From Chthoniobacterales bacterium (GTDB taxonomy: Bacteria; Verrucomicrobiota; Verrucomicrobiia; Chthoniobacterales; UBA10450): a stretch of 64,000 nt of DNA. The position numbers were made by a program, and so were the translations under genes. The DNA is taken from positions 59,085 to 123,084 of the forward strand of contig JBBRNL010000003.1 of assembly GCA_038230335.1 (NCBI GenBank), in the 5' to 3' direction. Numbering within the stretch: position 1 is the stretch's first letter; each line of letters starts with the position of its first letter. Below are positions 21,765 to 46,986 of the stretch, piece after piece. The notes below the pieces were generated by a model. It saw only the letters and a list, made by a program, of their open reading frames with translations. It was not told the DNA's origin and searched no databases.

Positions 21765-22757
21765 ATGAAACAAAATATTACACTGTTGTTCCCCCTGAAG
21801 AATCACGCTGTTTTTCTGATGGCGCTGGGCGCGGCGGCTGGACTCTCTTTCTTCGCGTCGCCCAGTGCGAACGCCCAGGTATCCGACAGGCGTCGTCCCC
21901 GTCCCGACTTTGGACCGACCGGACCTACGGGCGCGACAGGTCCAGCGGGCGTCATGGGCAACACCGGAGCCACCGGCTCCACTGGAGCGGCTGGCGCCAT
22001 GGGGACGGCGGGTGCTAACGGAGCGACCGGACCTTCCGGAGCAACCGGGCAGAATGGCGCGACTGGCGCGCAGGGTCCAATGGGCACAACGGGTACGACT
22101 GGCATGATCGGTGCAACCGGAGTCACCGGCGCGACGGGAGCATTAGGCGCGACCGGAGCCACTGGTCCGACCGGACCCGAGGTTTCTTCAGCATTCGCTT
22201 ACGTTTACAACGTCGCTGCGGAAACGGTCGCCACTGGTGTTTCGGTTGCGTTCAGCAACAGTGGGCCGGCTCAAAACATAACACTCACAGGCACGACAGG
22301 TTTAGTCTTGGGCACGGACGGGACATACCTTCTGGAGTTTCACGTCCGCGGCAGTTCTTCGAGTTCCGGTGCGATCGTATTTCAACTCGATGCCGATGGT
22401 ATTCAAATTCCCGGATCGGAATATTCCAGCCAACTCCCGCCGGCCGCCGCGATTTCTTTTCAAAAATTGCCCGAGGTCCAAGCCGTCTCCAACAGCTCCA
22501 CGGTCGCGGTCAACGGTATTGTCACGGCTGGATTGACGGCTGGAACGCTTGTCAGCCTGCAAAATGCGACTCCGCTGTTGGCCAGCGTCACTCTCCCCGC
22601 GGATGTAAACAGCCCGGTGAACGCTTCTCTGCGCATCGAGCGAATTGGGCCATTGACTGGTGCCACTGGGGCGACCGGTCCCACTGGTTTCACTGGTCCA
22701 ACTGGCCCGACCGGGATCACTGGCCCGACGGGGATCACTGGCCCGACCGGTCCTTAA
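21765..22757 (+). CDS. collagen-like triple-helix-repeat protein (G-x-T repeats flanking a globular domain), secreted
   Basis: A signal peptide is followed by about 90 aa of [22 protein letters not shown]..., then a globular region of about 150 aa, then a second [32 protein letters not shown] tract running to the C-terminus. Confidence 0.8.
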
Positions 22758-24251: not shown

Positions 24252-25019
24252 ATGATTCAACGAAAAGAATTTTTGGTCGATCCGTGTTCATCTGTGGCTC
24301 GAATTCTTTTGCAGTCGCCCCTGAGGCCCGCGCTCGAGCGTGCCTTGCTCGTTACGTGTCTCGCGGCCTCAGCCATGGCGGGCGAGCCCAACAGGGTTCG
24401 TTATGTCGCTATTGGTGACTCCTATTCCATCGGGGAAGGAGCTTCTCCTAACGAATCGTGGCCGGCCTTACTGACCCGCCACCTGAACGAGCAAGGCTTG
24501 CGCGTCGACCTCGTGGCCAATCCATCGCGCACGGGTTGGACGACGCAACAGGCGATCGATCGCGAACTTCCTGTCATGGTCAACGCCGGCCCGAACTTTG
24601 CGACACTCCAGATCGGTGTGAATGATTGGGTGCAGGGCGTGACGGCCGAAGACTTCCGCAAACGCTTTATTCTGCTCGTCGATCGAATGCTTGAGGTGCT
24701 TGGAAACAAAGATCACTTGCTCGTCGTAACCATCCCCGACTTCGGGGTCACGCCAACCGGTGCGCATTACGCGCGTGGACGCGACATTTCCGCCGGCCTC
24801 ACCGCATTCAACCAGGTGATTATGGAAGAGGCGAGAAAACGCGGCCTCCGCACAGTCGATGTTTTCGACCTGAGCAAGCGGATGCATGAGGACCTGTCCT
24901 TGCGGGCCTCCGACGGATTGCATCCTTCGGCCAAAGAGTACGCGAAATGGGAGAAAGTAATTTTCCCGGTTACGCTCGAATTGATCAAGAATGAGCGATC
25001 GATTGAGACCAATCACTGA
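24252..25019 (+). CDS. SGNH/GDSL hydrolase, exported
   Basis: Block I is YVAIGDSYSIGEG, followed by GVNDW and a DGLHPS catalytic block. The start is uncertain: a dispersed-repeat half-site lies in the first 60 nt, and an in-frame TTG sits at 24345. Confidence 0.8.
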   Translation: MIQRKEFLVDPCSSVARILLQSPLRPALERALLVTCLAASAMAGEPNRVRYVAIGDSYSIGEGASPNESWPALLTRHLNEQGLRVDLVANPSRTGWTTQQAIDRELPVMVNAGPNFATLQIGVNDWVQGVTAEDFRKRFILLVDRMLEVLGNKDHLLVVTIPDFGVTPTGAHYARGRDISAGLTAFNQVIMEEARKRGLRTVDVFDLSKRMHEDLSLRASDGLHPSAKEYAKWEKVIFPVTLELIKNERSIETNH

Positions 25020-25050: not shown

Positions 25051-25122
25051 TGGGCGGTGAGGGTTTCGAACCCCCGACCCTCTCGGTGTAAACGAGACGC
25101 TCTACCGCTGAGCTAACCGCCC
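25051..25122 (-). tRNA. tRNA-Val (anticodon TAC)
   Basis: The reverse complement folds by hand into a cloverleaf: acceptor GGGCGGT/ACCGCCC, D-arm GCTC-AGCGGTA-GAGC, anticodon arm TCTCG-TTTACAC-CGAGA and T-arm GGGGG-TTCGAAA-CCCTC. The discriminator is A and no CCA is encoded. Confidence 0.9.
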
Positions 25123-25584: not shown

Positions 25585-25779
25585 TTGGTAAAACTAACGA
25601 AGGACATCAAACCCATGACTAACCAATCCAAAAAAAGCAAGAAACTCCGGTTGAATAAAGAAACATTGAAAGACCTGGGTGATCGAAACGCGGGGCAAGT
25701 TAAAGCGGGAAATAAGGCCGCTAATGCGGTGGCCCCGGGAGCTTCAAACAGAGGAACCGCAGTACAGACGATGTGTTAA
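25585..25779 (+). CDS. lanthipeptide-type RiPP precursor peptide, copy 1 (core ends ...NRGTAVQTMC)
   Basis: ORF 25585..25779 (TTG), with an alternative ATG at 25615 (54 aa). The leader KLRLNKETLKDLGDRNAGQVKAG is followed by a Ser/Thr-containing core with a single C-terminal Cys. It lies directly upstream of the LanD-LanC and LanB genes. Confidence 0.75.
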   Translation: MVKLTKDIKPMTNQSKKSKKLRLNKETLKDLGDRNAGQVKAGNKAANAVAPGASNRGTAVQTMC

Positions 25780-25852: not shown

Positions 25853-26017
25853 ATGACAAAGTTGACCAAAAAAAGCCCAAAACTCCGGTTGAATAAAGAA
25901 ACATTGAAAGACCTGGGTGATCGAAACGCGGGGCAAGTTAAAGCGGGTAATAAGGCCGCTAATGCGGTGGCCAGGGGAGGTTCAAACGGAGCGACCGCAG
26001 TACAGACGATGTGTTAA
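25853..26017 (+). CDS. lanthipeptide-type RiPP precursor peptide, copy 2 (54 aa, not in the ORF track)
   Basis: Hand translation gives MTKLTKKSPKLRLNKETLKDLGDRNAGQVKAGNKAANAVARGGSNGATAVQTMC*. It is a tandem paralogue of copy 1 with a 238-bp period. The leader DNA is nearly identical and the core diverges. Confidence 0.75.
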   Translation: MTKLTKKSPKLRLNKETLKDLGDRNAGQVKAGNKAANAVARGGSNGATAVQTMC

Positions 26018-26301: not shown

Positions 26302-28467
26302 ATGCCATCGCGGTCTGACTCCATACGTTACCTGCGCAACCCGACGACGGTTGCGATCGGACAGCGCGATCGGTTCATCTTCATTCGCGAGGATGGCCAC
26401 GTCGTTGTCGACGAGGCAGGAAAACCGGATTTTGTTTCGGCGATTCTAGGCGCGCTCGGCGAGCCCCGTTCCGTGGCTGAGGTGGCACGGGCTGTTCGTC
26501 ACCCAAACGGCCGAGTTCGCTCGATTGTCCGGCAACTGGTCCGCGCGAAAGCCGTCGCCGTCGGATCGGAAAAGCTCCTTTTTACCGACGGTCCGGGAAT
26601 CTCCCGTCGGGCAAAGCCATGTCGGTGTTTGGTGCTCGGCATTTCCGGAGCTGCGCAAGCCATGTCCATCCTCTCTTTGGTGGCGAAACTGCACGAGGTT
26701 TTCGCGGAGCAGATTGATATCATCCTGACCGATGCGGCGCGGCAATTTGTGCAGCGAGAGGCCTTTTCGGCTCTTGGCGTCGAAGTCTGGCAGGATTTAT
26801 TCGAGCGGAGAGAACTCGTCAAAGTCCCGCACATGTATCTGGCCAAACGAGCCGATTTGGTCGCGATCATTCCTGCCAGCGCCCATACAATTCATCGGCT
26901 GGCGGCGGGCGAATGCTCTGATTTGTTATCGGTGGTGGTAGCGGCAACCCGGGCGCCCGTCGTGGTGGCCCCGAGCATGAATCCCAACATGCGGCACCAT
27001 CCCTCCGTGCAGCGTAATATTGCGCAGCTCCGCGCGGATGGCGTTTACGTGATTGAGCCCGCCTGGGGAATCGAGTTGAGTCGCGGCGAGAGCAGGCACA
27101 CTTCTCTGGGCAGCATCGGGGTCAACGAAAAGAATGCGCCACTTGCGTTCGAGACGGTGATGAGATTTGCCGGGCAAATAAAACGTTCTCGATCCACCTC
27201 CGCCGCGGAGTGCTGGCAGCCAATTTTAGAAAAGAATGCGCGCAGCGCGGCGCTCGAGGCGATTCAAGCGATCGCTCACCAACTGCGAAGGGTGCGGCTG
27301 AAAGACGCAAGCCTTGGCTTCGGCCACGCTGGGGTAGCCCTCTTTTTCGCCTACTTGCGTCGGGCGCGTCTGGACATCGGCGGGAACGATAGTGCGCAAA
27401 GATGGATCAACCGCGCCACCGAAACCGTCGGTTCGACCAGAATGTCTGCTTCCCTCTTCGGTGGGTTTACCGGGGTGGCGTGGGTTATGGAGCACCTTTA
27501 CGGCTGGCCTGGAGATACGGAAAAATCCGATCCGAACGGAGCCATCGACGAAGCCTTGAAAGGCTATCTTCGGTTATCCCCCTGGCGAAGAGATTACGAT
27601 CTGATCGAAGGATTGGTTGGTTTCGGAGTATACGCTTTGGAACGAATGCCGCGGCCCAGCGCCATTGATTGCTTGAACCTGGTGGTGGAACGCTTGAATG
27701 AAATTGCCGTGCGGACCGGTGAAAAAGTCACATGGTTTACTCCCCCCAAATTACTTCCGCCCTGGCAGCGAAAGGTTTGTCCCGAAGGCTATTTTAATCT
27801 GGGCGTGGCCCACGGCGTGCCCGGCGTAATCGCTTTCCTTGGTCAAGTTTCTGCGATTAACGACCAGCGTCTGACCACTCGCGTTCTCGCTCGCTCGCTC
27901 CTTAACGGAGCCGTGGCATGGCTGCTCGAGCAAAGGTCTAGCGAAGGTTCCGGCGTGGTGTTTCCCAACTGGATTGGTCCCAAAGTTCACGACATGCCAC
28001 CTCGCCTTGCCTGGTGTTACGGCGATTTTGGCGTTGCGTGCGCTTTGCTGGCAGCCGCGCGTTGCGCGGGGAAGAAGACGTGGGAAGACGCCGCCCTCGT
28101 GATTGCTCACCGTGTCGACCGGCGCCACAGAGAGGTGTCCGATATCCCCTACTGCGGGCTCTGTCACGGTGTGGCGGGCGGGGGACATATGTTTAATCGT
28201 CTCTTTCAAGCCACGGGCGAGCGCGCTTTCAAAAAGGCGGCGCAGAATTGGTTTTCTCGGACATTGGAATTGCGCCGGCCTAACGGTGGCATCGCGGGCT
28301 TTCACTTTTTGCGCCACGAGGGAAAAGCCGGGACTCGCTGGCTCAATGATCCTGGCCTGGTCGAAGGCGCTGCTGGGGTAGGACTGGCCTTGCTTGCGGC
28401 TGTATCGAGTGTCGAACCGTTGTGGGACCGTACCATGCTCTTGTCGATTCCTCCTCGAAATCAATGA
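26302..28467 (+). CDS. fusion protein: N-terminal ~105-aa domain + HFCD flavoprotein (LanD/EpiD-like Cys decarboxylase) + LanC-like lanthionine cyclase
   Basis: ORF 26290..28467 (TTG), with ATG at 26302. The HFCD motifs are LVLGISGAAQA, VPHMYL, IIPASAHTIHRLAAGECSDLL and VVAPSMNPNMRHHP (compare EpiD PASANT and PxMNxxMW). The LanC motifs are SLFGGFTGVAW, GVAHGVPGV, WCYGDFG and GLCHGVAGG (the Zn ligands Cys and Cys-His). Confidence 0.85.
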   Translation: MPSRSDSIRYLRNPTTVAIGQRDRFIFIREDGHVVVDEAGKPDFVSAILGALGEPRSVAEVARAVRHPNGRVRSIVRQLVRAKAVAVGSEKLLFTDGPGISRRAKPCRCLVLGISGAAQAMSILSLVAKLHEVFAEQIDIILTDAARQFVQREAFSALGVEVWQDLFERRELVKVPHMYLAKRADLVAIIPASAHTIHRLAAGECSDLLSVVVAATRAPVVVAPSMNPNMRHHPSVQRNIAQLRADGVYVIEPAWGIELSRGESRHTSLGSIGVNEKNAPLAFETVMRFAGQIKRSRSTSAAECWQPILEKNARSAALEAIQAIAHQLRRVRLKDASLGFGHAGVALFFAYLRRARLDIGGNDSAQRWINRATETVGSTRMSASLFGGFTGVAWVMEHLYGWPGDTEKSDPNGAIDEALKGYLRLSPWRRDYDLIEGLVGFGVYALERMPRPSAIDCLNLVVERLNEIAVRTGEKVTWFTPPKLLPPWQRKVCPEGYFNLGVAHGVPGVIAFLGQVSAINDQRLTTRVLARSLLNGAVAWLLEQRSSEGSGVVFPNWIGPKVHDMPPRLAWCYGDFGVACALLAAARCAGKKTWEDAALVIAHRVDRRHREVSDIPYCGLCHGVAGGGHMFNRLFQATGERAFKKAAQNWFSRTLELRRPNGGIAGFHFLRHEGKAGTRWLNDPGLVEGAAGVGLALLAAVSSVEPLWDRTMLLSIPPRNQ

Positions 28468-31400
28468 CGAAAACCCGCGATTATTCCGCGTTCCAAGTCG
28501 CGGACTTTTTCGTTCTGCGGACACCGCTGCTCTCTTTCGACGAATTTTTGAAATGGAGCGATGGCTTGAAGGCACCCCAGGCGATGAGCGATCCCGTGAG
28601 TTTGCCCGAAGCGATCTCGGCCGATCGGCAGAAACTTGGGCTCGCCCTGCGCGAAATCATGTCGCGGCCGGAGGTGCGGGAAGCGCTCTTCGTTGCATCG
28701 CCTGAACTGGAAGGAACTTTTTCTTTGTGGAACGGCCAGCCGGAGACCGAGCGAAGCCGTGGCATCGACCTATCGATGGCACGATATTTCTCCCGCATGA
28801 CGGGCCGGGCCACGCCTTTCGGCCTGTGCGCCGGTTGTTCCGTGGGAAAGATCGGTGCAGTCGCAGCTCTTAGGATCGCCGAGCGATCGAGCTGGAAAAA
28901 GCACACCCAGCTGAGTGTGGAATATTTGTCCGCCCTGGCCGATTCGTTAGGGAGCGATGCAACCGTGCGGGACGCTTTCCTCTATTGGCCGAATTCCAGC
29001 CTGTATCACATGGCTGGCCATTTTCGCTATCTGGAGCGATTCAAAAAGGCCGGCAAAGCGCACTCTTATCATCTGGTGGCGGTGGAAGATTCGGAAGCTC
29101 TTACTGAGATTCTTCAACGAGCCGGGAATGGCGCGCTTTTTTCCGATCTGGTTTCCTCCGTGACAACCGCTGAGATCTCTTCCGCCGAGGCCGCGGAATA
29201 TGTGCAGGACCTGATCGACAACCAAATCCTGATTCCAGATATCATCCCACCGGTCACGGGAGAGGAACCAGCCGAAGTTTTCGTGCAGCGCCTAAGAGAG
29301 CATCTTCCCACAAGTCCGGTGGCCGCCAAGATAGCTGCGGTCAACGAGAGTCTGGCCGCCATGGACCGCACGGGAGTGGGCACCTCCCCGCAGGCCTATC
29401 GCGACGTTGCAACTCTTCTTCAGTATCTCCCGGTCGCAGCCGAACTATCGCACTTGTTTCACATCGACATGATCAAGCCGGCGGGTGAGCTGACGTTGAG
29501 CCAGGCTGTCTTGAACGAGTTGCTGCACGGCGTAAGAATTCTTCATTCCCTAGCCCGGCCAGATGCAACTGCCGCTCTTCTGACGCCGTTTCGCCAGGCT
29601 TTCGTTGACCGTTACGACCGGGAGGCGGTGCCGATCCTGGAGGCGCTGGATGAAGAAGCCGGAATTGGATTCCCAGTCTCGCCCACCTTCGATGCAGCTT
29701 CTCCTTTGCTTAAAGGACTTACGTTTTCGAATCCGGTTTCTCCGACTCAGCCGTGGTCTACCCGCGAGAAATTCCTGCTCCATAAGTTAGGGGAGGCGCT
29801 CAGCCAAGGCGCTCAGGAGATCGTTCTCGACGAGCACGAACTGGACGAAATCGCTCACCCGACGCGATTCGATCTGCCGGATGCATTCGCGGTTATGGCC
29901 AGAGTAGCGGCCGCTTCGGAAGCCGCGATGAATGAAGGCGATTTCCGCGTCTTCGTCACCGGTGTCAATGGACCCTCCGGCGCATTCTTTTTCGGTAGAT
30001 TCTGCCATGCGGCGCCCGATCTTAGCGCGCACGTCCGCGAACACCTGCGCGCGGAGGAACAATTGCGCCCGCACGCCATTTTCGCCGAGATTGCATACTT
30101 GCCTGACGGTCCTTTTGGAAATCTGGCCGTGCGACCAGTCCTGCGGGAGCATGAGATTCCCTGCTTCACGCCTTCCGGCGTAAGTCACGATAAGCAAATC
30201 GAGCTGGCTGATTTATTTCTCAGGGTTCGCGGGGATCGTGTAATTCTTTTTTCAAAGAGCAGGGATCGCGAAGTGATTCCGCGGTTGACCAGCGCTCATG
30301 ACTTCGACCGACAAGGCCCGCCTCTGTATCGTTTCCTTTGTGCCCTGCAAGATCAGGGGACAGCGCCGCTCGGATGGGATTGGGGAGATCTGTGGGGCGC
30401 GCCATTCCTTCCCCGGGTCGTTTGCGGGAAAATCGTTTTGGCTCGTGCGCGCTGGTTGGTCACCGCCAAAGAGATCGTTCCGCGTCAACCGGATCCCGCC
30501 GCATCCTTCGCCGCCTTGCAGAAATGGAGGGCCGACCACCGGGTCTGCCGATTTGTCGCCTTGGTAGAGGGCGAAGGCGATCAGGCACTTGCCTTGGATC
30601 TCGACAACGTTATTTGCGTTGAGATTTTGCTCCGAAAACTGAAGCCCGGTGTGGAACTCGCCCTTCTCGAGATGTTTCCCAGTCCGGATCTGCTGCCCGT
30701 GTCTGCACCGGACGGTCGTTACACGCACGAGTTAATTGTCCCTTTCGTGCGGACGCGATTAACCGGTGTCCCGATTGTGCCGTCCTCAGCCAGGATTAAT
30801 CAGGGTCTTACCGTCGGGGCGCGGGTCTTCCCACCCGGTTCCGAATGGCTTTACGCAAAACTCTATTGCGGCCCGGTGACGGTGGATCGTTTGCTCCGCG
30901 GAATGGTCGCTCCGCTCGTAAAGGAATTCGCCGGCGCCGGCGCGATCGACCGCTGGTTTTTCATTCGCTACCGCGATCCGGATTGGCATTTGCGCCTTCG
31001 GTTTCACGGAAAGATTCGCGATTTGCAGGAGACGGTGCGCCCGGCCCTTGAGAAAGCAGCGGAGTCTTTGCTCGATGGCCGCGAAATCAGACGCGTTCAA
31101 TTCGATACCTATGAACGTGAGATTGAGCGATACGGGGGATTGGAGGCGATGCTCTTGAGCGAGCAACTGTTTCAGGCCGACAGCGAGGCGATTCTGTCGC
31201 TTCTCGATGGACTCGCACAATCTGGCGCAGATGCGGATCAGCGTTGGCGGGTAGCCTTGCTCGGCTTAGACAGATTATTGTCTGACTTTGAATTCAATCT
31301 CCCAACCAAGCGCGCGATCGTCGAAAATTGGAGGTTGGATCTGGCTCGGGAGTTCCAGGTGAATGCCGGGATGAAAAAAGAATTAAGCGATCGATTCCGC

Positions 31401-31694
31401 CAGGAGCGCAAAGCCCTCGAAGGGTGGCTTTCAAAACCATCAGAGGCGAGCGAGGCGTCCGCCATGAGCGAAAAAGTATTTCGACAACGATCGGGAGAGA
31501 TTATTCCGATCGTCGCGAGCCTGAAGACAATTGAAAAAACGAATGGGTTGACCTCCCCGCTCTCAATGCTGGCCGCTTCCTACCTGCACATGCACGTCAA
31601 CCGCCTCCTTATCTCTACTCATCGGGCACACGAATTGGTTTTGTACGACTTCCTTGTGCGCCTCTATGATTCGAAGATCGCTCTTGCTCGTTGA
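28464..31694 (+). CDS. lanB: full-length class I lanthipeptide dehydratase (LanB: glutamylation + elimination domains)
   Basis: ORF 28422..31694. The ATG at 28464 overlaps the upstream stop (ATGA). The N-terminus FQVADFFVLRTPLLSFDEF is typical of Lant_dehydr_N. The C-terminal WLYAKLYCG...IDRWFFIRYRDPDWHLRLRFHG is typical of the SpaB_C/elimination domain. The product is 1076 aa. Confidence 0.9.
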   Translation: MTKTRDYSAFQVADFFVLRTPLLSFDEFLKWSDGLKAPQAMSDPVSLPEAISADRQKLGLALREIMSRPEVREALFVASPELEGTFSLWNGQPETERSRGIDLSMARYFSRMTGRATPFGLCAGCSVGKIGAVAALRIAERSSWKKHTQLSVEYLSALADSLGSDATVRDAFLYWPNSSLYHMAGHFRYLERFKKAGKAHSYHLVAVEDSEALTEILQRAGNGALFSDLVSSVTTAEISSAEAAEYVQDLIDNQILIPDIIPPVTGEEPAEVFVQRLREHLPTSPVAAKIAAVNESLAAMDRTGVGTSPQAYRDVATLLQYLPVAAELSHLFHIDMIKPAGELTLSQAVLNELLHGVRILHSLARPDATAALLTPFRQAFVDRYDREAVPILEALDEEAGIGFPVSPTFDAASPLLKGLTFSNPVSPTQPWSTREKFLLHKLGEALSQGAQEIVLDEHELDEIAHPTRFDLPDAFAVMARVAAASEAAMNEGDFRVFVTGVNGPSGAFFFGRFCHAAPDLSAHVREHLRAEEQLRPHAIFAEIAYLPDGPFGNLAVRPVLREHEIPCFTPSGVSHDKQIELADLFLRVRGDRVILFSKSRDREVIPRLTSAHDFDRQGPPLYRFLCALQDQGTAPLGWDWGDLWGAPFLPRVVCGKIVLARARWLVTAKEIVPRQPDPAASFAALQKWRADHRVCRFVALVEGEGDQALALDLDNVICVEILLRKLKPGVELALLEMFPSPDLLPVSAPDGRYTHELIVPFVRTRLTGVPIVPSSARINQGLTVGARVFPPGSEWLYAKLYCGPVTVDRLLRGMVAPLVKEFAGAGAIDRWFFIRYRDPDWHLRLRFHGKIRDLQETVRPALEKAAESLLDGREIRRVQFDTYEREIERYGGLEAMLLSEQLFQADSEAILSLLDGLAQSGADADQRWRVALLGLDRLLSDFEFNLPTKRAIVENWRLDLAREFQVNAGMKKELSDRFRQERKALEGWLSKPSEASEASAMSEKVFRQRSGEIIPIVASLKTIEKTNGLTSPLSMLAASYLHMHVNRLLISTHRAHELVLYDFLVRLYDSKIALAR

Positions 31695-31958
31695 GCATTC
31701 TCACGCAGTAGGCGCCGTGCCTGATGACGCAACTACCGCGTGCGCCTGCTGCCTTGAGGGCAAAAGGAACTAACGAGTATCATGATTGCCGGCGGCAACG
31801 GCTGAGCCTGTTCAATCTTCGAGAACACCCGGTTATTATCATCTTGTATTTTGGCCGAGTGGGCGGTATTTGCATAACTAATCACCGCAGGGTCTGTCGC
31901 TGTTCTCGAGCCTTTGCCCCTGTATTAATCGAAAGAGAAAGAGAAAGAGAAGGTAAGT

Positions 31959-32117
31959 ATGAAAAAGCCAATCAAATCCCCGAAAGGGACGAAGATCAAA
32001 GATATGGTGCCGAGGAAAGATGCCAAAGGTGGCGGCTCCAAGGCTCCCGGCGGCGTGGTCTCACCGAGCGGAATCCAAGCGAATCACAACGAAACCTTCG
32101 TTTGCGACGGTTGCTGA
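31959..32117 (+). CDS. candidate third precursor peptide (52 aa, ends ...NHNETFVCDGC), conflicts with the 5' end of the TPR ORF
   Basis: Hand translation gives MKKPIKSPKGTKIKDMVPRKDAKGGGSKAPGGVVSPSGIQANHNETFVCDGC*. A purine-rich SD-like gagaagg lies 6 nt upstream. It has a KGG-type leader end and a C-terminal Cys. It overlaps ORF 32020..33108 by 98 nt in another frame. Confidence 0.4.
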   Translation: MKKPIKSPKGTKIKDMVPRKDAKGGGSKAPGGVVSPSGIQANHNETFVCDGC

Positions 32118-33108
32118 GCGGAAGGCGGAAAATTTACGGCGCTGCGCCGATCGTGCGTGGGAGGGTGGGCAGTTCGCAAAAGCGGAGGCTTTTTACAATC
32201 GCAGCATTGGTGAGCTGAAGATATGCGTCGCGGGCTCCTGTCACGTTCGCACCTATTCAGGGTTGGGGAATCTGTACCGCTTTCTCGGGCGGTATCGTGG
32301 GGCGGAGTTGTCCCTGAGAACGGCTCTTCGCGCAGCGCTTGGCACTTTCGGCGATAGGGCGCAGGAGACCTGTGCTGTCCGCAACGACTTGGCGGTCTTA
32401 TTTAAGTATACGGGCCGCTTCCGTGAAGCAGCGGCTATTTTCCATCGTTTGTTGAAACTATCCACTTCGCCGAGGGCTGTGGAATTTTTAGAGGTCGCGA
32501 CCATTTATCATAATCTCGGTGGCCTCGAGCATGCCCGTGGCTCGTTCGAGCGGGCCGAGCGGTTCGCGCGTCAGGCAATCGAACTTCGCAAGCAGTCGCA
32601 TGGGCCGAATCACCACGCTGTGGCAGAGGACGCGGTGGCGCTCGGTGCGATCCTGGTCGAGCGCGGGAAATATCCCGAGGCGGAGCGTCTTTATAAAATG
32701 GCACTTCGCACTTTTCGGAGAAAGATCGGTTCCCACCGTTACAATATTGCCGTCGCTTTAAACAACCTGGCTGCTCTTCATCAGGCGCGCGGGGAACTCG
32801 CGACAGCTAAGCGATTCTACATGAAAGCCCTTGCCCTGAAGACGCAGCTCTTTGGTCGGAAACACGTGGATGTCGCGTTAACGCTCAACAACCTCGCTGT
32901 CCTACAGAAAACTCGCGGGGAATGGACGGCAGCGATCAGTTATTACAAGGAGGCGCGCGCAATCTTTGAAGCCGTTCTGCCTCCAGATCATCCGAAGCTC
33001 ATCAAGTGCCGCGCAAACCTGGCCAAGCTTCTGCATGAACAGGCATTGCGAAACATTCGGCCGCCGGCAAGGAAAGACAAAAAAGAGAGAGCCTGCGCCA
33101 TGCGATGA
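32020..33108 (+). CDS. tetratricopeptide-repeat protein (TPR_12 / kinesin-light-chain-like repeats)
   Basis: The repeats include YSGLGNLYRFLGRYRGAE, YHNLGGLEHARGSFERAERFARQAIEL, LNNLAALHQARGELATAKRFYMKALAL and LNNLAVLQKTRGEWTAAISYY. The first ~30 aa (Pro/Ala/Arg-rich) may not be translated, so the true start is uncertain. Confidence 0.8.
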   Translation: MPKVAAPRLPAAWSHRAESKRITTKPSFATVAERKAENLRRCADRAWEGGQFAKAEAFYNRSIGELKICVAGSCHVRTYSGLGNLYRFLGRYRGAELSLRTALRAALGTFGDRAQETCAVRNDLAVLFKYTGRFREAAAIFHRLLKLSTSPRAVEFLEVATIYHNLGGLEHARGSFERAERFARQAIELRKQSHGPNHHAVAEDAVALGAILVERGKYPEAERLYKMALRTFRRKIGSHRYNIAVALNNLAALHQARGELATAKRFYMKALALKTQLFGRKHVDVALTLNNLAVLQKTRGEWTAAISYYKEARAIFEAVLPPDHPKLIKCRANLAKLLHEQALRNIRPPARKDKKERACAMR

Positions 33109-33742: not shown

Positions 33743-34276
33743 TCAGTTGATGACGCGGTAAAATCGCCGCGAAAAACCCGTTACGAGCACCTTGCCGTTT
33801 GCCAAAAGGGTCGCCGTGTGACCGATGCGGACCTGCATCAGAGCGCCGGTCGTCGCCCAAGTCCCCGTCGCCGGGTTGTATCGTTCCGCGGTGTTGAGCA
33901 AAGCGGAAAAATCGGTTTGTCCGCCAGCGACCAGCACCTTCCCATCCGCCAGCAGGGTAGCGGTGTGGAAGGCGCGCGGAGCGCTCAGCGGGCCAGTTGG
34001 GCTCCCGATTGCCGTCGTGGAATCGAACAGTTCGACGCTGTCCAGATAACCACCGGCGGGCGGTTGGCCGCCAGCGAGCAGGACCCTGCCATTTTGCAGC
34101 AAGCTGGCGGTGTGCCCGGAGCGCCTCTCCGCCAGCAGGCCGGTCGATCGAAACGAAGCGGCGCTGGCGGATCGTTGGATGGCCAGTCCGAGAATCAATG
34201 CGGCGAACGCGACAAAGAGAACGCGAATCTTGAGTTTCATGCTGAGGGCCGAGATTTTTGTAGATAGAGTTGTCAC
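33743..34276 (-). CDS. Kelch-repeat protein, apparently 3'-truncated (only ~3 blades)
   Basis: A signal peptide is followed by the repeats GHTASLLQNGRVLLAGG, FHTATLLADGKVLVAGG and GHTATLLANGKVLVTG. The sequence then degenerates (FSRRFYRVIN*) in the middle of a blade. Confidence 0.6.
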   Translation of the reverse strand: MTTLSTKISALSMKLKIRVLFVAFAALILGLAIQRSASAASFRSTGLLAERRSGHTASLLQNGRVLLAGGQPPAGGYLDSVELFDSTTAIGSPTGPLSAPRAFHTATLLADGKVLVAGGQTDFSALLNTAERYNPATGTWATTGALMQVRIGHTATLLANGKVLVTGFSRRFYRVIN

Positions 34277-34773: not shown

Positions 34774-36861
34774 ATGAAAACTAGCAATGTTTTTTGCGCG
34801 AGCACAGTTCTCCTGCCTGCGTTGCTTTTTATTCCCTGTCATCTTTTGCTTGCGAAAGATAAGCCGATCCATCCGCCGGGCGACCATTTGACCCCTTCGC
34901 CGCTGTGCGCCTGGACGGATCAAGGCGTGATGAGAGGTGAAAAGCCGGACACGCAAATAATCGTGTCGAAGACCCATGTTGTACTCGTAACGACTGGTAG
35001 CTTGGGTTTCTTTGACAAGAAAGGAAACCGACTGGCGGTCGCATCGACTACGGATTTCTTCACTAACAACAAAACAAGAATGCCCGACGGCACGTTGATG
35101 TCGGATTTCCTCGTCGCGCATAAAGGTGAAAAACCGGTGTGGGGTTTTGGCGATTGCAAGGCCCTGTACGATCCGTATCGCAACCGTTTTTGGTTCCTCG
35201 CCACTTTTAACAACGCTTATCCAGGAGATGGCCAGATGTTCTGGGCCGTTGGTGTTTCAGATAGCAGTGATCCGACCCAGGGCTGGCGTACTTTTGTTCT
35301 GCCGGCTCATCGACGCGACGACAAACGCTATACCAATTCCGATTTTCCGATGCTCGGACTGGATAAGGAAGCGTTTTACGTTTCGGTCTGCGTTCTGATT
35401 GGCAATCCGGAGGTTCGCGCCCAGAACTACTGGTATGTGCTCGCCTTGAACGCCGACGACGTGGCCGCCGGAAAGGATCTGGCTTCAGTAAAAACAGCTG
35501 AACTCGATCACTGGCCCGATCCCGAAACTCATAAACCACTCGCGCGCGGAATTCTAATGCCAGCGATTCCAACCGGACTCAAAGAGACAAAGTCGGGAAT
35601 GAAGTTCGCCGGCGCTCTGGGTAAAAACACCGGCATTTGGTCGTTACGAAATCCGTTCAGTCTGCATCCGGAGATCCGAACGTGGACAGTGCCGATCAGC
35701 TCCCGCGGCCCGGGTTCAGCCGGCGTAAAACAACGACAGAAAGGAACGCCGGAACTCGCGCCGATTGCGTTGGGCGGTGCGATTGTGAGCGTGACCCAAT
35801 CGGGCGACGATCTGTATCTCGTTTCGCAAGACGTCATCCAAGGCGCAGATAAACACCCTCATACCGCCGTTCGCTTCAGTCAGGTGATATGTCCTGGGCC
35901 ATTCGGTCAGCCTCCCCGCGTCACCAAGGACATTAAGTATGGCGCCCAATCGCCCGAGGAACGGGACGCGAACCTGAACTACACCATTCCTTCCGCCATG
36001 ATTAACAAAAACGGCGATGCCATCGTCGTCGAAAACAGTGTAGGCCCGAGCGTCCATCAGGAAGCGCGCGCTTCGGCGATTTATCACGACAGCAGCTCGG
36101 CTGATTGGAGCGCACTAATTAAGACGGGCGAGGGCGCGAATACCGGCGGATGGGGCGATATTGCGAAGGCATCTCTGGATCCTTCCGATAACATCGGCAT
36201 CTGGGTTGCCACCCAATACGGCGCCGGTCATCACGCGCACCTCGCCATCGGCAAATTTTTGTCGGGACAAACAAGCCGCATCTCCGATGGCTGGCCCGGA
36301 TTATGGGCCAACACTGTCCAGGCCGCCACGGTGTGGCCTAACGGCAAACTTTATTTTTTCCGTGGCAGCGAATACATCCGCTACGACGTCGCGAGTAGCA
36401 AAGCAGATCCCGGATATCCGCAAACGATCGCAAAGGCATGGCCCGGGATTTGGCCGGAGGGATTCGATGCTGTGGCGGCCTGGCCTAACGGGAAGGCCTA
36501 CTTCTTTCGCGGCGATCAATATCTCCGCTACGACATCAGAACGGATAAAGTGGACGATGGCTATCCCAAGCCAATCACTTACGCCTGGTCCGGAGTATGG
36601 AAGGATGGAAAGATCGACGCGGTCGTTGTCTGGCCTAACGGGAAGGCCTATTTTTTCCGCGGCGATCAATACATTAGTTACGATATCAAGGCGGACAAGG
36701 CGGACGCGGGGTTCCCCAGGCCGATCGCGAATGATTGGCCCGGGCTTTGGGTCGATGGAGTCGATGCCGGAGTCGCTCTTCCGAGCGGAGCCGTCTATTT
36801 CTTTAAACGAAGCGATGTTTTCCGCGGCAAAGCAGCGGAGCTGCCCGCTGCCGCCCCTTAA
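34774..36861 (+). CDS. secreted protein with unknown N-terminal region and C-terminal four-blade hemopexin-like repeat domain
   Basis: Signal peptide. From about nt 36285 to 36830 there are four repeats of W-P-N-G-K-x-Y-F-F-R-G-x-x-Y-x-x-Y-D ... D-x-G-Y-P-x-x-I ... W-x-G-x-W, which is the hemopexin/MMP-type blade motif. Confidence 0.8.
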   Translation: MKTSNVFCASTVLLPALLFIPCHLLLAKDKPIHPPGDHLTPSPLCAWTDQGVMRGEKPDTQIIVSKTHVVLVTTGSLGFFDKKGNRLAVASTTDFFTNNKTRMPDGTLMSDFLVAHKGEKPVWGFGDCKALYDPYRNRFWFLATFNNAYPGDGQMFWAVGVSDSSDPTQGWRTFVLPAHRRDDKRYTNSDFPMLGLDKEAFYVSVCVLIGNPEVRAQNYWYVLALNADDVAAGKDLASVKTAELDHWPDPETHKPLARGILMPAIPTGLKETKSGMKFAGALGKNTGIWSLRNPFSLHPEIRTWTVPISSRGPGSAGVKQRQKGTPELAPIALGGAIVSVTQSGDDLYLVSQDVIQGADKHPHTAVRFSQVICPGPFGQPPRVTKDIKYGAQSPEERDANLNYTIPSAMINKNGDAIVVENSVGPSVHQEARASAIYHDSSSADWSALIKTGEGANTGGWGDIAKASLDPSDNIGIWVATQYGAGHHAHLAIGKFLSGQTSRISDGWPGLWANTVQAATVWPNGKLYFFRGSEYIRYDVASSKADPGYPQTIAKAWPGIWPEGFDAVAAWPNGKAYFFRGDQYLRYDIRTDKVDDGYPKPITYAWSGVWKDGKIDAVVVWPNGKAYFFRGDQYISYDIKADKADAGFPRPIANDWPGLWVDGVDAGVALPSGAVYFFKRSDVFRGKAAELPAAAP

Positions 36862-44964: not shown

Positions 44965-45171
44965 AATCCCAAGGAATCAGCAGGACGCGGGCCGCAGGTT
45001 GCGCCCGATGGCTGCTTGTTGAAGGGGCGGGTGCCGAGTTTGTCACACCCTCCGTATCGCGCCGCGCGTTAGCGCTCCGTACGGCATTTTTCTGCGCGCC
45101 CCTTCCTATGCGGTCGTTTTTGCCTCTCCATAAGGCTGAAAGACTTCCACGAAACGAATCTTACTTTCGTG

Positions 45172-46986
45172 ATGAGAATCTTGTTAACGAGCTTATTTGG
45201 ATTCGTCGCGCTGACCGCAACACTTCAGGCGAATTCTCCCAAGCATCGTGAATCGGGGAAATTGGACCAACCAACCATAACTAAGCCGGTGTCGGTGGCA
45301 GCGCCACCACTGGGACCGGTTAATGTGGGGGCGAAAGGCAACGAACCACTTATCGCAACGTCACCAGACGGGACCCTTTACATCAGCGCTCTCCAACATA
45401 TCTACCGTTCGACCGACGCAGGGGCGACTTGGACGGAGCTGCCCGGGCCTATTTACGCCTCAACTCTGAATCTAGCCTCCGATAGTTCCATTTCGGTTGA
45501 TTCGGCGAACCGACTCTACTTCACTTTCGATTATCCCTACGCGGGCACGACTGCCGTATGTACGAGCGACGATCATGGTGACACATTCACCTGCGATCCG
45601 GCGGTCGTTCCAGGCGGCACCGATCGGATGTGGGTCCTGGCGCCGACGACCACGGCGGCGTACGAGGTAACCAATCAGGGTTTATACGAAACCGCTTTTC
45701 TACAAAGTACAGACCGGGGCGCGACCTGGATTGCGAAGTCGGTTGGAAGCGGGCTTTTGGAACCGCAATCAGGTCCGCTTCTACAAAAGAACTGCAGCGG
45801 GGATGTTCTCCAACCGGTCAAAGTTTACGGCACGACGCCCCAGGAAGTGCCCGAACTCAAGCTTTACGTTTACCATCCTGCGGCCACGGGTTCGGTTATT
45901 TCGGATATTCGGTCGACGGGTCTTCCGCTTCCCTACGCTCTTCCCAGCGCGGCGATTGGGCAGGATGGCGAGCTTTGGGTTTCAACCGAGGAAACGAACC
46001 CCGCCGGGGGAAGACAAATCGTGGTGGCCCGCTCCACGAACGAGGGCGCCACTTGGGCGCAGCTGCCTCCTATTCCAGAAACCACGACGGGCACGGCAAT
46101 TTTTTCCTGGGTGGCGGCGGGATCGCCTCACCATGTGGGAGTCCTTTTCTATTACACGTCGGATAACGGGGACCCAGGCGTGCTCACAAATGCCACCTGG
46201 TCGACGGTGTGGGCAGAAACCTTCAACGCGGACAGTGCGGTTCCTGTTTGGGCTGTGAGTACGATCGAGAGCCCGATTCATGTCGGTCCCCTGTGCATCG
46301 CTGCCAGTTGTATGGGAACAAACAGATTCGCCGGCGACTTCATCAGTTCTGTGATCGATTCGAGCGACACCGCCCATCTCACCTGGATGAGCCAGGCGAA
46401 CGGCACGGGCGCTGTCTCGATTCGTTATGCCAAAGTGCAGGCGGGTTTACCTTCGACCTTTGCCACTATTCCATGTGCGCTTACACCGACGGTTATTTCA
46501 CGAAAAATGCACGGCGCTTTTGGCCCGTTTGATATTCCTCTTCCGCAGATTGGACGGAACGGAAGCGAGTGTCGCGCCGGTGGATCGGCCGGGAATTATC
46601 AAATGATCGCCACGTTTCCAACGGCCGTAACGGTCGACCATGCCGCGGTCGTCTCAGGCACGGGTCGTGTCGACAGCACGAGCGTGAGTGGCAACGACGT
46701 CATCGTGAACCTGAGCGGAGTGGCGAATCAACAGACGATTAACGTTACTTTGTTTGGGGTACACGGCGGATCGACTGCGGCGGATATTACCCTGGGGATG
46801 AGTATCCTGGTCGGTGACACGAATGGCGACGGTGTCGTCAACTCGGCTGATATCAGCCAAACAAAGTCGCAATCAGGAACGGTGGCCACCAATTCGAATT
46901 TTCGCGAAGATCTGAACGTCGATGGCGGCATTAATAGCGGCGATATTTCCCTGGTAAAATCGAAGTCCGGCACCGCGCTTCCGTAA
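45172..46986 (+). CDS. BNR/Asp-box beta-propeller protein with C-terminal dockerin-type repeats, secreted
   Basis: The Asp-boxes are STDAGATWT, STDRGATWI and STNEGATWA. The C-terminal pair of Ca-binding loops is GDTNGDGVVNSADI and DLNVDGGINSGDI (dockerin type I pattern). Confidence 0.8.
   Translation: MRILLTSLFGFVALTATLQANSPKHRESGKLDQPTITKPVSVAAPPLGPVNVGAKGNEPLIATSPDGTLYISALQHIYRSTDAGATWTELPGPIYASTLNLASDSSISVDSANRLYFTFDYPYAGTTAVCTSDDHGDTFTCDPAVVPGGTDRMWVLAPTTTAAYEVTNQGLYETAFLQSTDRGATWIAKSVGSGLLEPQSGPLLQKNCSGDVLQPVKVYGTTPQEVPELKLYVYHPAATGSVISDIRSTGLPLPYALPSAAIGQDGELWVSTEETNPAGGRQIVVARSTNEGATWAQLPPIPETTTGTAIFSWVAAGSPHHVGVLFYYTSDNGDPGVLTNATWSTVWAETFNADSAVPVWAVSTIESPIHVGPLCIAASCMGTNRFAGDFISSVIDSSDTAHLTWMSQANGTGAVSIRYAKVQAGLPSTFATIPCALTPTVISRKMHGAFGPFDIPLPQIGRNGSECRAGGSAGNYQMIATFPTAVTVDHAAVVSGTGRVDSTSVSGNDVIVNLSGVANQQTINVTLFGVHGGSTAADITLGMSILVGDTNGDGVVNSADISQTKSQSGTVATNSNFREDLNVDGGINSGDISLVKSKSGTALP

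Follow-up and report, generated by a model that had tools for sequence, protein, structure and literature searches.

A stretch of 64,000 nucleotides (nt) from the chromosome of an uncultured Chthoniobacterales bacterium (Verrucomicrobiota; assembly GCA_038230335.1, contig JBBRNL010000003.1, positions 59,085 to 123,084), hereafter the window, carries a gene cluster of the minimal class I lanthipeptide type in a chromosomal setting which also encodes DnaX, PurL and PurF. The PurL of the window has one named close relative, 77% identical to it and from a metagenome-assembled genome of the Chthoniobacterales. The cluster consists of two precursor genes, a gene that joins a predicted recognition element for peptides that are synthesised on ribosomes and modified after translation (RiPPs), a LanD-type decarboxylase and a LanC cyclase in a single reading frame, and a gene for a LanB dehydratase. 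The joined protein is considered here as a candidate enzyme for the formation of aminovinylcysteine (AviCys) rings. The RiPP recognition element is abbreviated to RRE and the LanD-type domain is called HFCD after its flavoprotein family; related loci carry L numbers, related proteins P numbers. Positions in the window and strands are as follows.

25615-25779, forward strand: precursor A1 (ATG start, 54 amino acids; 64 amino acids if begun at the upstream TTG, 25585)
25853-26017, forward strand: precursor A2 (54 amino acids, open reading frame translation)
26302-28467, forward strand: the whole fused gene RRE-LanD-LanC (721 amino acids and stop)
26302-26595, forward strand: predicted PqqD-like RRE (amino acids 1-98; AlphaFold2 model, Foldseek and hhalign)
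26596-26625, forward strand: low-confidence linker (amino acids 99-108)
26626-27159, forward strand: predicted HFCD/LanD-type flavin-dependent peptidyl-cysteine decarboxylase domain (amino acids 109-286; Pfam PF02441)
27160-27162, forward strand: fusion point, the ATG of Met287 (nucleotide comparison with loci L004 and L005)
27160-28464, forward strand: complete class I LanC cyclase domain (amino acids 287-721; Pfam PF05147)
28464-31694, forward strand: LanB dehydratase (1076 amino acids; Pfam PF04738 and PF14028, NCBIfam TIGR03891)

The fused protein and its cluster

The fused gene reads through 721 codons without a stop and encodes one polypeptide of three modules. A preliminary description, made from the DNA letters and their translations, had read it as a single protein combining an N-terminal domain of about 105 amino acids with a LanD and a LanC, and this was borne out: the open reading frame (ORF) is intact, PF02441 and PF05147 are found in the same protein, and all of the EpiD-like and LanC motifs that had been quoted were located in the translation.

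The decarboxylase part matches the Flavoprotein family PF02441 over amino acids 110-251 (E 2.8e-22; 79.5 bits, the cutoff being 22.7) and contains the HFCD motifs LGISG at 112, VPH177MYL, PASAHT at 191-196 and PSMN227PNM at 224-230. His177, the active-site residue equivalent to His67 of EpiD, is invariant and N227 nearly invariant among 62 family members, and both align with the corresponding residues of the PDB entries 6jls, 6tgv and 7cfu. The residue following the second Met of PxMNxxM is R in the window protein and W, F, L or R across the family. Both the window protein and the family consensus have PASAHT where the canonical motif is PASANT (His for Asn), a position which may tolerate change, since 6jls, the nearest RiPP-type decarboxylase of solved structure, carries PATAAT there. 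Scores against PDB sequences were 74.8 bits for 6jls (6.8e-20), 72.8 for CoaBC 6tgv, 71.8 for 7cfu, 52.3 for MrsD 1p3y and 45.7 for EpiD 1g63; on these scores the HFCD part appears to be about equally distant from the solved RiPP-type decarboxylases and from CoaBC, with EpiD and MrsD themselves being only distant matches (46-52 bits). A housekeeping role as CoaC or CoaBC was rejected, as PF04127 is lacking, TIGR00521 and TIGR02113 fall far short of their cutoffs (107 bits where 219.7 are required, and 79.8 where 261.4 are), and the gene stands in a RiPP context.

The LanC part matches LANC_like PF05147 over amino acids 335-713 (E 6.9e-39, profile positions 4-350 of 350), is 52-57% identical to stand-alone LanC proteins, and is aligned by MadC (PDB 8byk) at E 4.4e-25 with the ligands conserved. 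All of the Zn ligands (C572, C621 and H622) and acid/base residues (H504, R568 and D433) occur in the protein and align with those of MadC, D433 lying in DYDLIEG, H504 in GVAHGVPG, R568 and C572 in RLAWCYG and C621-H622 in LCHG. The Zn-ligand and acid/base roles are those described for C284, C330, H331, H212 and D141 of NisC and for C298, C344, H345, H228 and R294 of MadC (PMC9889658).

For the N-terminal domain, sequence searches gave little: none of 37 family members matched Pfam PF05402 (PqqD) at E<=10, with only weak winged helix-turn-helix families appearing, and a search of PDB sequences with the domain returned weak generic winged-helix matches and no PqqD. An AlphaFold2 model of amino acids 1-106, built on an alignment of 37 sequences, had a predicted local distance difference test score of 86.8, with strands at 9-12, 17-20, 25-28 and 34-37, helices at 42-51, 58-65 and 69-81, and a final strand at 85-88. 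The top 33 Foldseek matches of this model in the PDB were all RiPP leader-binding domains (probability about 1.0, template modelling (TM) scores of 0.45-0.65), including TbiB1 with its leader (5v1v, E 2.2e-3), TigE, ThcOx, the MccB peptide clamp (TM up to 0.65), the PbtF RRE (8t19) and TbtB. Comparison by hhalign of the family profile with a PF05402-annotated protein from locus L007 gave a probability of 91.9% (E 6.9e-7), and the domain is conserved across 62 family members with the pattern YLRNP...P...D...L..L..P...L...LV...L.G. The structure search and hhalign together thus support the assignment of amino acids 1-98 as a predicted RRE, and what had been offered in the preliminary description as a speculation, that this region could be PqqD-like, has gained support from the modelled fold.

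Precursor A1 reads MTNQSKKSKKLRLNKETLKDLGDRNAGQVKAG followed by NKAANAVAPGASNRGTAVQTMC, and A2 reads MTKLTKKSPKLRLNKETLKDLGDRNAGQVKAG followed by NKAANAVARGGSNGATAVQTMC; in each the C-terminal residue is the sole Cys, and both finish in ...TAVQTMC, in agreement with the earlier observation that the only Cys of these peptides is C-terminal. A2 is matched weakly by the NCBIfam class I lanthipeptide leader model NF038153 (18.8 bits, below the cutoff of 22), and the leader motif KLxLNKETLKDL...G-G/A-G is common to the window precursors and to those of loci L002, L004, L005 and L106. LanB is full length, with its glutamylation and elimination domains both present, and shares 51% identity with the L106/L107 LanB from end to end; its ATG overlaps the stop codon of the fused gene as ATGA, and it is translationally coupled to that gene.

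Origin and rarity of the fused gene

The N-terminal half is most closely related to P0094 at locus L004 (53% identity) and P0095 at locus L005 (49%). At both loci two precursor genes are followed by RRE-HFCD and then LanC, which form separate ORFs that overlap by 40-50 nt in different frames. The junction at L004 reads ...GTA ATG, 20 nt, ATG (the LanC start), 51 nt and TGG, and that at L005 reads ...GTG ATG, 19 nt, ATG (the LanC start), 51 nt and TGG, while the window has ...GTG ATG, 51 nt and TGG, and is therefore short by 23 nt relative to L004 and by 22 nt relative to L005. Met287 serves at once as the Met of the last conserved LanD motif (TVM) and as the initiator of the ancestral LanC, and its codon lies 51 nt upstream of that for the conserved Trp305; LanD has lost just a non-conserved tail of 19-22 amino acids with its stop, and LanC is complete from its ancestral first residue. 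This comparison indicates that the fusion arose by a 22-23-nt deletion, flanked by ATG microhomology, which brought LanD into the reading frame of the overlapping LanC at its start codon; an origin by a 1-nt frameshift was ruled out by the same nucleotide comparison. The GDSL lipase of L004 is 69% identical to the window lipase at 24252-25019, suggesting that L004 comes from a related organism and hence that the two-gene state is likely to be the ancestor of the fusion. L004 is a nanopore-type contig in which an AIRS/AIRS_C gene is split upstream, so that less reliance can be placed on its reading frames than on those of L005.

Two genes in related genomes had been named beforehand as a sign that the fused frame could be an artefact, in which two true genes have been merged by a frameshift error in sequencing or assembly. 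Related loci do carry two genes in different frames, and the sequence is from one sample only, but the difference between them is a clean deletion of a 22-23-nt segment with the 51-nt ATG-to-TGG spacing exactly conserved, so that the finding of two genes stood while its reading as an artefact did not. A base-calling slip is impossible given the length of the missing segment and the ATG microhomology at its flanks, and no long homopolymer lies at the junction. An independent Logan assembly of SRR19962015 matches the window at 100% identity across 5,463 nt and gives the same 721-amino-acid protein, and other long genes of the window are full length, PurL and LanB aligning end to end with their homologues, so that the assembly does not look indel-prone. 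We regard an artefact as extremely improbable, and the fusion as a genuine, one-off event in one lineage.

No second fusion of this kind came to light. With the full fused sequence as query, a word-indexed search through 5.8 billion proteins gave 93 matches, among which the query alone carries both PF02441 and PF05147 and all of the LanC relatives (at most 56% identical) are stand-alone proteins of 400-500 amino acids. Searching 1.84 billion cluster representatives with phmmer gave no second protein with both halves among the top 150 matches (at least 299 bits), where any fusion from the sub-clade of the window protein would rank. No LanD-LanC fusion was present in the 17 genome loci and 8 further contigs examined. 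A scan of metagenome contigs with the RRE-HFCD alignment, in which matches were mostly of the CoaBC type, yielded 79 of 80 loci with HFCD only and none with LanC, and is uninformative on adjacency. Neither a published LanD-LanC fusion nor an RRE-bearing LanD or cysteine decarboxylase was found in the literature searched, outside which most subscription-journal papers lie. The fusion is thus a singleton within the searches made, from one sample; the preliminary description, by which no LanD-LanC fusion is known to have been described and which proposed checking whether the architecture is already common, agrees with both large protein searches, in which no other fusion was seen among the matches listed, and with the literature covered.

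Being a singleton among billions of proteins, with nearest relatives that keep two genes, the fusion could be real and yet incidental, the outcome of a recent neutral or mildly harmful deletion after which the domains work as separate proteins do, with no channelling and with LanC perhaps made also from Met287. The ancestral LanC ATG is preserved, and the LanC clade includes a LanC-LanB protein (P0227) and an HFCD relic (at L105), suggesting that such packed genes fuse or break easily. Set against this, the catalytic residues of both domains are intact in an ORF without signs of decay, the deletion took just the non-conserved tail of LanD and left LanC complete, and the recurrent LanD-LanX fusions of class Va (see below) suggest that decarboxylase-cyclase fusions can be useful, and so we consider an incidental fusion to be unlikely.

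Proposed role in AviCys formation

The reading that we prefer, with a probability of roughly 0.65, is that the fused protein is a leader-guided, single-polypeptide AviCys synthase which would work with LanB and which was born of the 22-23-nt deletion. We infer the following order of steps from the predicted domains. The N-terminal RRE would bind the precursor leader (the KLxLNKETLKDL region) and so tether the substrate, and LanB would dehydrate Ser/Thr residues of the core to dehydroalanine or dehydrobutyrine (Dha/Dhb). The flavin-dependent HFCD domain would then oxidatively decarboxylate the C-terminal Cys to an enethiol(ate), and the Zn-dependent LanC domain would direct the Michael addition of the enethiol sulfur onto Dha/Dhb. 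Decarboxylation by HFCD enzymes requires a free thiol, and for this reason it would come before ring closure. Since each precursor has a single Cys, the product would contain one AviCys or aminovinyl-methylcysteine (AviMeCys) macrocycle as its sole thioether ring, and a protease encoded elsewhere would cleave off the leader at the G-G/A-G site. That the fusion would physically couple formation of the enethiolate to its Michael addition had been put forward in the preliminary description; the fusion may do so, and may also channel the substrate. The Ser/Thr that follows small residues (GGS, GAS or GGT) is the sole hydroxy residue common to the window, L004 and L005 cores, and if, as a speculation, it is taken as the acceptor, then the rings would span 11 residues in the window, 24 in L004 and 14 in L005.

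The role given to LanC is argued by exclusion. Precursors of the window, L004 and L005 have a C-terminal Cys alone, so that only that sulfur is available to LanC in this sub-clade, and the retention of an intact Zn-cyclase beside such single-Cys precursors argues that LanC would act on the C-terminal Cys.

Several points weigh against the synthase proposed here. As the fusion is a singleton from one sample, selection for it cannot be shown, and as Met287 is in frame, a separate LanC could still arise by internal initiation. Loci L008 and L013 (Myxococcaceae) have an RRE-LanD and a LanB with no LanC within 10 kb, suggesting that LanC is not universally needed for ring closure in the RRE-LanD family. 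LanD-like enzymes alone are reported to cyclise, TvaF and CypD both decarboxylating and cyclising, and such enzymes reportedly require assembly into dodecamers (bioRxiv 2020.02.13.947028), which an RRE and a 435-amino-acid LanC on every subunit may or may not permit. Domain annotation of the window found no protease or exporter genes near the cluster. Neither L004:1-11521 nor L005:1-5459 carries a LanB on its contig and their cores have one Ser or Thr, so that the simple pathway does not explain dehydration there.

The LanC-free Myxococcaceae loci and the reports on TvaF and CypD would also fit a LanC domain that is not an AviCys cyclase at all, with the ring closed by the HFCD domain or spontaneously and LanC only binding or holding the peptide, or idle; the AviCys ring-closing catalyst of class I is indeed stated to be unresolved, in reviews among others (PMC8549060; bioRxiv 2020.02.13.947028). 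The LanC domain, however, has full Zn and acid/base sites, and its partners in the window, L004 and L005 are precursors with a single, C-terminal Cys, which offer no other substrate sulfur, and we consider a LanC without a cyclase function here to be distinctly improbable.

The proposed synthase shares its set of LanB, Zn-LanC and HFCD enzymes, and a precursor ending in Cys, with the class I AviCys systems of epidermin/gallidermin (EpiD), microbisporicin (MibD) and mutacin 1140 (MutD), and the HFCD active-site His and PxMN motif of these are conserved in the window protein. It differs from them in that LanD and LanC are one polypeptide, in that LanD has an N-terminal RRE, and in that the precursors have a C-terminal Cys alone, so that ordinary (methyl)lanthionine rings are impossible. 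Classical LanDs are stand-alone proteins of about 180 amino acids which recognise the C-terminal residues of their substrates without a leader, and an RRE-LanD family with a predicted built-in leader-binding domain contrasts with these leader-independent enzymes. The stand-alone RRE-HFCDs (P0094, P0095 and about 80 others) have the same architecture and the same PASAHT, GxCSDLLS and PxMN motifs as the window protein, whereas they end in a tail of 19-22 amino acids and a stop, with LanC, if any, separate; their contexts include LanB only, PqqD with DUF455, and precursors of the nitrile hydratase leader type.

LanD-LanX fusions occur in some class Va clusters, where they have been read as a persistent complex during biosynthesis (PMC12291118, Fig. 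S53). These likewise join a decarboxylase to an AviCys ring-closing enzyme, a role which for the window LanC is proposed, but LanX is a Zn-free cyclase of the kinase fold with dehydration by LanK/LanY, whereas the window has a Zn-LanC, the LanB pathway and, in addition, an RRE. Membership of the window protein in the class Va LanD-LanX group was accordingly rejected, since it has no kinase-type domain, its partner is LanC and its dehydratase LanB, and it is an analogue only. CoaBC (Dfp), bifunctional as PPC decarboxylase and PPC synthetase, is likewise an HFCD with a large C-terminal second domain, although the window protein lacks the CoaB domain, has an RRE and lies in a lanthipeptide cluster, and HFCD-methyltransferase fusions of the same clade (P0178, P0081 and P0174-P0177) have an S-adenosylmethionine (SAM) methyltransferase, not LanC, as their C-terminal partner; these two groups show that C-terminal additions to HFCD cores exist. 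The window protein combines parts that are already known, within a pathway of known kind, into a new domain architecture, with class Va LanD-LanX as its closest precedent.

A broader reading, which we hold tentatively and at rather less than an even chance, would take three further claims together: that the Zn-LanC acts solely on the enethiolate of the adjoining domain, making the fusion the first Rosetta-stone evidence for a class I LanC as AviCys cyclase; that the product belongs to a new type of lanthipeptide, in which a single large AviCys/AviMeCys macrocycle stands without any ordinary lanthionine; and that the RRE-LanD clade represents previously undescribed leader-dependent peptidyl-cysteine decarboxylases across several RiPP families. 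As a natural and minimal system, the window cluster lends itself to asking if the AviCys ring is closed by LanC, because its single-Cys precursors leave LanC only the decarboxylated C-terminus, and because LanC is tied to the decarboxylase in one chain. RRE-LanDs could also aid genome mining and the engineering of C-terminal AviCys caps. The value of the fusion is limited by its being a single event in one uncultured genome and by decarboxylase-cyclase fusions being already known in class V.

The RRE-HFCD family and the surroundings of the cluster

Searching with amino acids 1-310 of the fused protein gave about 80 stand-alone proteins of 285-340 amino acids which cover 85-94% of the query and are 35-53% identical to the window protein over amino acids 1-296; the module of N-terminal domain and HFCD thus predates the fusion. 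Their alignment has the clade motifs PASAHT, GxCSDLLS and PxMNxxM and an invariant active-site His. Cys-terminated precursor-like ORFs lie beside RRE-HFCD genes at L004, L005, L006/L008, L007, L012 (three copies), L014, L015, L016, L026 and L108, and every precursor-like small ORF visible beside an RRE-HFCD gene ends in Cys; LanC is directly downstream at L004 and L005 and nearby at L012, L016 and L108. This marks the family as probable leader-dependent peptidyl-cysteine decarboxylases that would serve several RiPP classes.

Some of these loci are of interest in themselves. At L007:8001-13264 (JGI Ga0074479_10582603) the RRE-HFCD gene is followed by a PqqD-family gene, a 49-amino-acid ORF with the C-terminus ...SWWSC, two genes without annotation and a pair of DUF455 genes, forming a non-lanthipeptide cluster with two RRE-type domains. 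At L014:10851-11364, in a metagenome-assembled genome (MAG) of the Gemmatimonadales (CAWILD010000010.1), two ORFs of 72-73 amino acids with a nitrile-hydratase-type leader (MxVPPDKFxxYRQILERAW...) end in ...FIC beside an RRE-HFCD gene, with no LanB or LanC within 10 kb, and this may be a different RiPP class with decarboxylation of a C-terminal Cys. L006:6487-15505 (L006/L008, Myxococcaceae MAG JBGART010000035.1) has an RRE-HFCD, a convergent LanB, a C39-peptidase ABC exporter, no LanC and a precursor of 51 amino acids ending in ...GGPTGGYSTQTC; immediately upstream is a gene for a 450-amino-acid protein of the protein-kinase fold (Pkinase, with a faint APH match), which may be a LanX-like AviCys cyclase. 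L108:4956-6911 encodes a LanC homologue of 651 amino acids (LANC_like at 54-402) with about 250 extra C-terminal residues that have no Pfam match; the same cluster contains an RRE-HFCD as a gene of its own, an S51 peptidase, a LanB that is split, and two precursors that are rich in Cys and end in it.

At least nine cluster representatives (P0178, P0081, P0082, P0174-P0177, P0184 and P0185) fuse the HFCD clade to a C-terminal SAM methyltransferase, making a possible decarboxylase/methyltransferase tailoring enzyme; P0178 has about 100 residues before its flavoprotein domain, which are probably an RRE too. The clade of the window LanC includes other joined or broken genes. P0227 (1540 amino acids) is a LanC-LanB protein with LANC_like at 63-442, Lant_dehydr_N at 529-1185 and Lant_dehydr_C at 1257-1530, P0338 (584 amino acids) is LanC with the beginning of LanB, and P0275 (803 amino acids) is LanC with a PGA_cap domain. 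At L105:3300-3830 (ena:ERZ27311181:k141_7397632) an HFCD relic lies upstream of the stand-alone LanC P0004 (55% identical to the window LanC); only its C-terminal half is present (...APVVVGPAMN...QLRADGIFMVEPGW...), frameshifted and with stops ahead, suggesting that LanD is being lost in that lineage. Downstream of LanC P0003 and a multi-Cys precursor, L002:1825-2013 encodes an isolated copy of the last 60 or so LanC residues, 57% identical to amino acids 655-715 of the window protein, which is probably a duplicated gene fragment.

In the window the cluster is bounded on the left by a tRNA-Val gene (TAC; 25051-25122, reverse strand), with the GDSL lipase gene directly on one side and the first precursor gene on the other. 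It may be beside this tRNA gene that the lanthipeptide cluster was inserted; the orthologous lipase in L004 is on the other side of the cluster. A 164-amino-acid ORF at 31724-32218 (forward strand) was rejected as a cluster member, as it is Arg-rich and of low complexity, has no Pfam or NCBIfam match and shares 200 nt with a tetratricopeptide repeat gene; it is probably spurious, and some 300-500 nt past LanB would then be non-coding. The cluster is surrounded by genes for collagen triple-helix repeat, Kelch-repeat, hemopexin-repeat (695 amino acids) and dockerin-bearing proteins, at 21765-22757, 33743-34276 (reverse strand), 34774-36861 and 45169-46986, with domains of kinds that are more typical of eukaryotes or of the cell surface.

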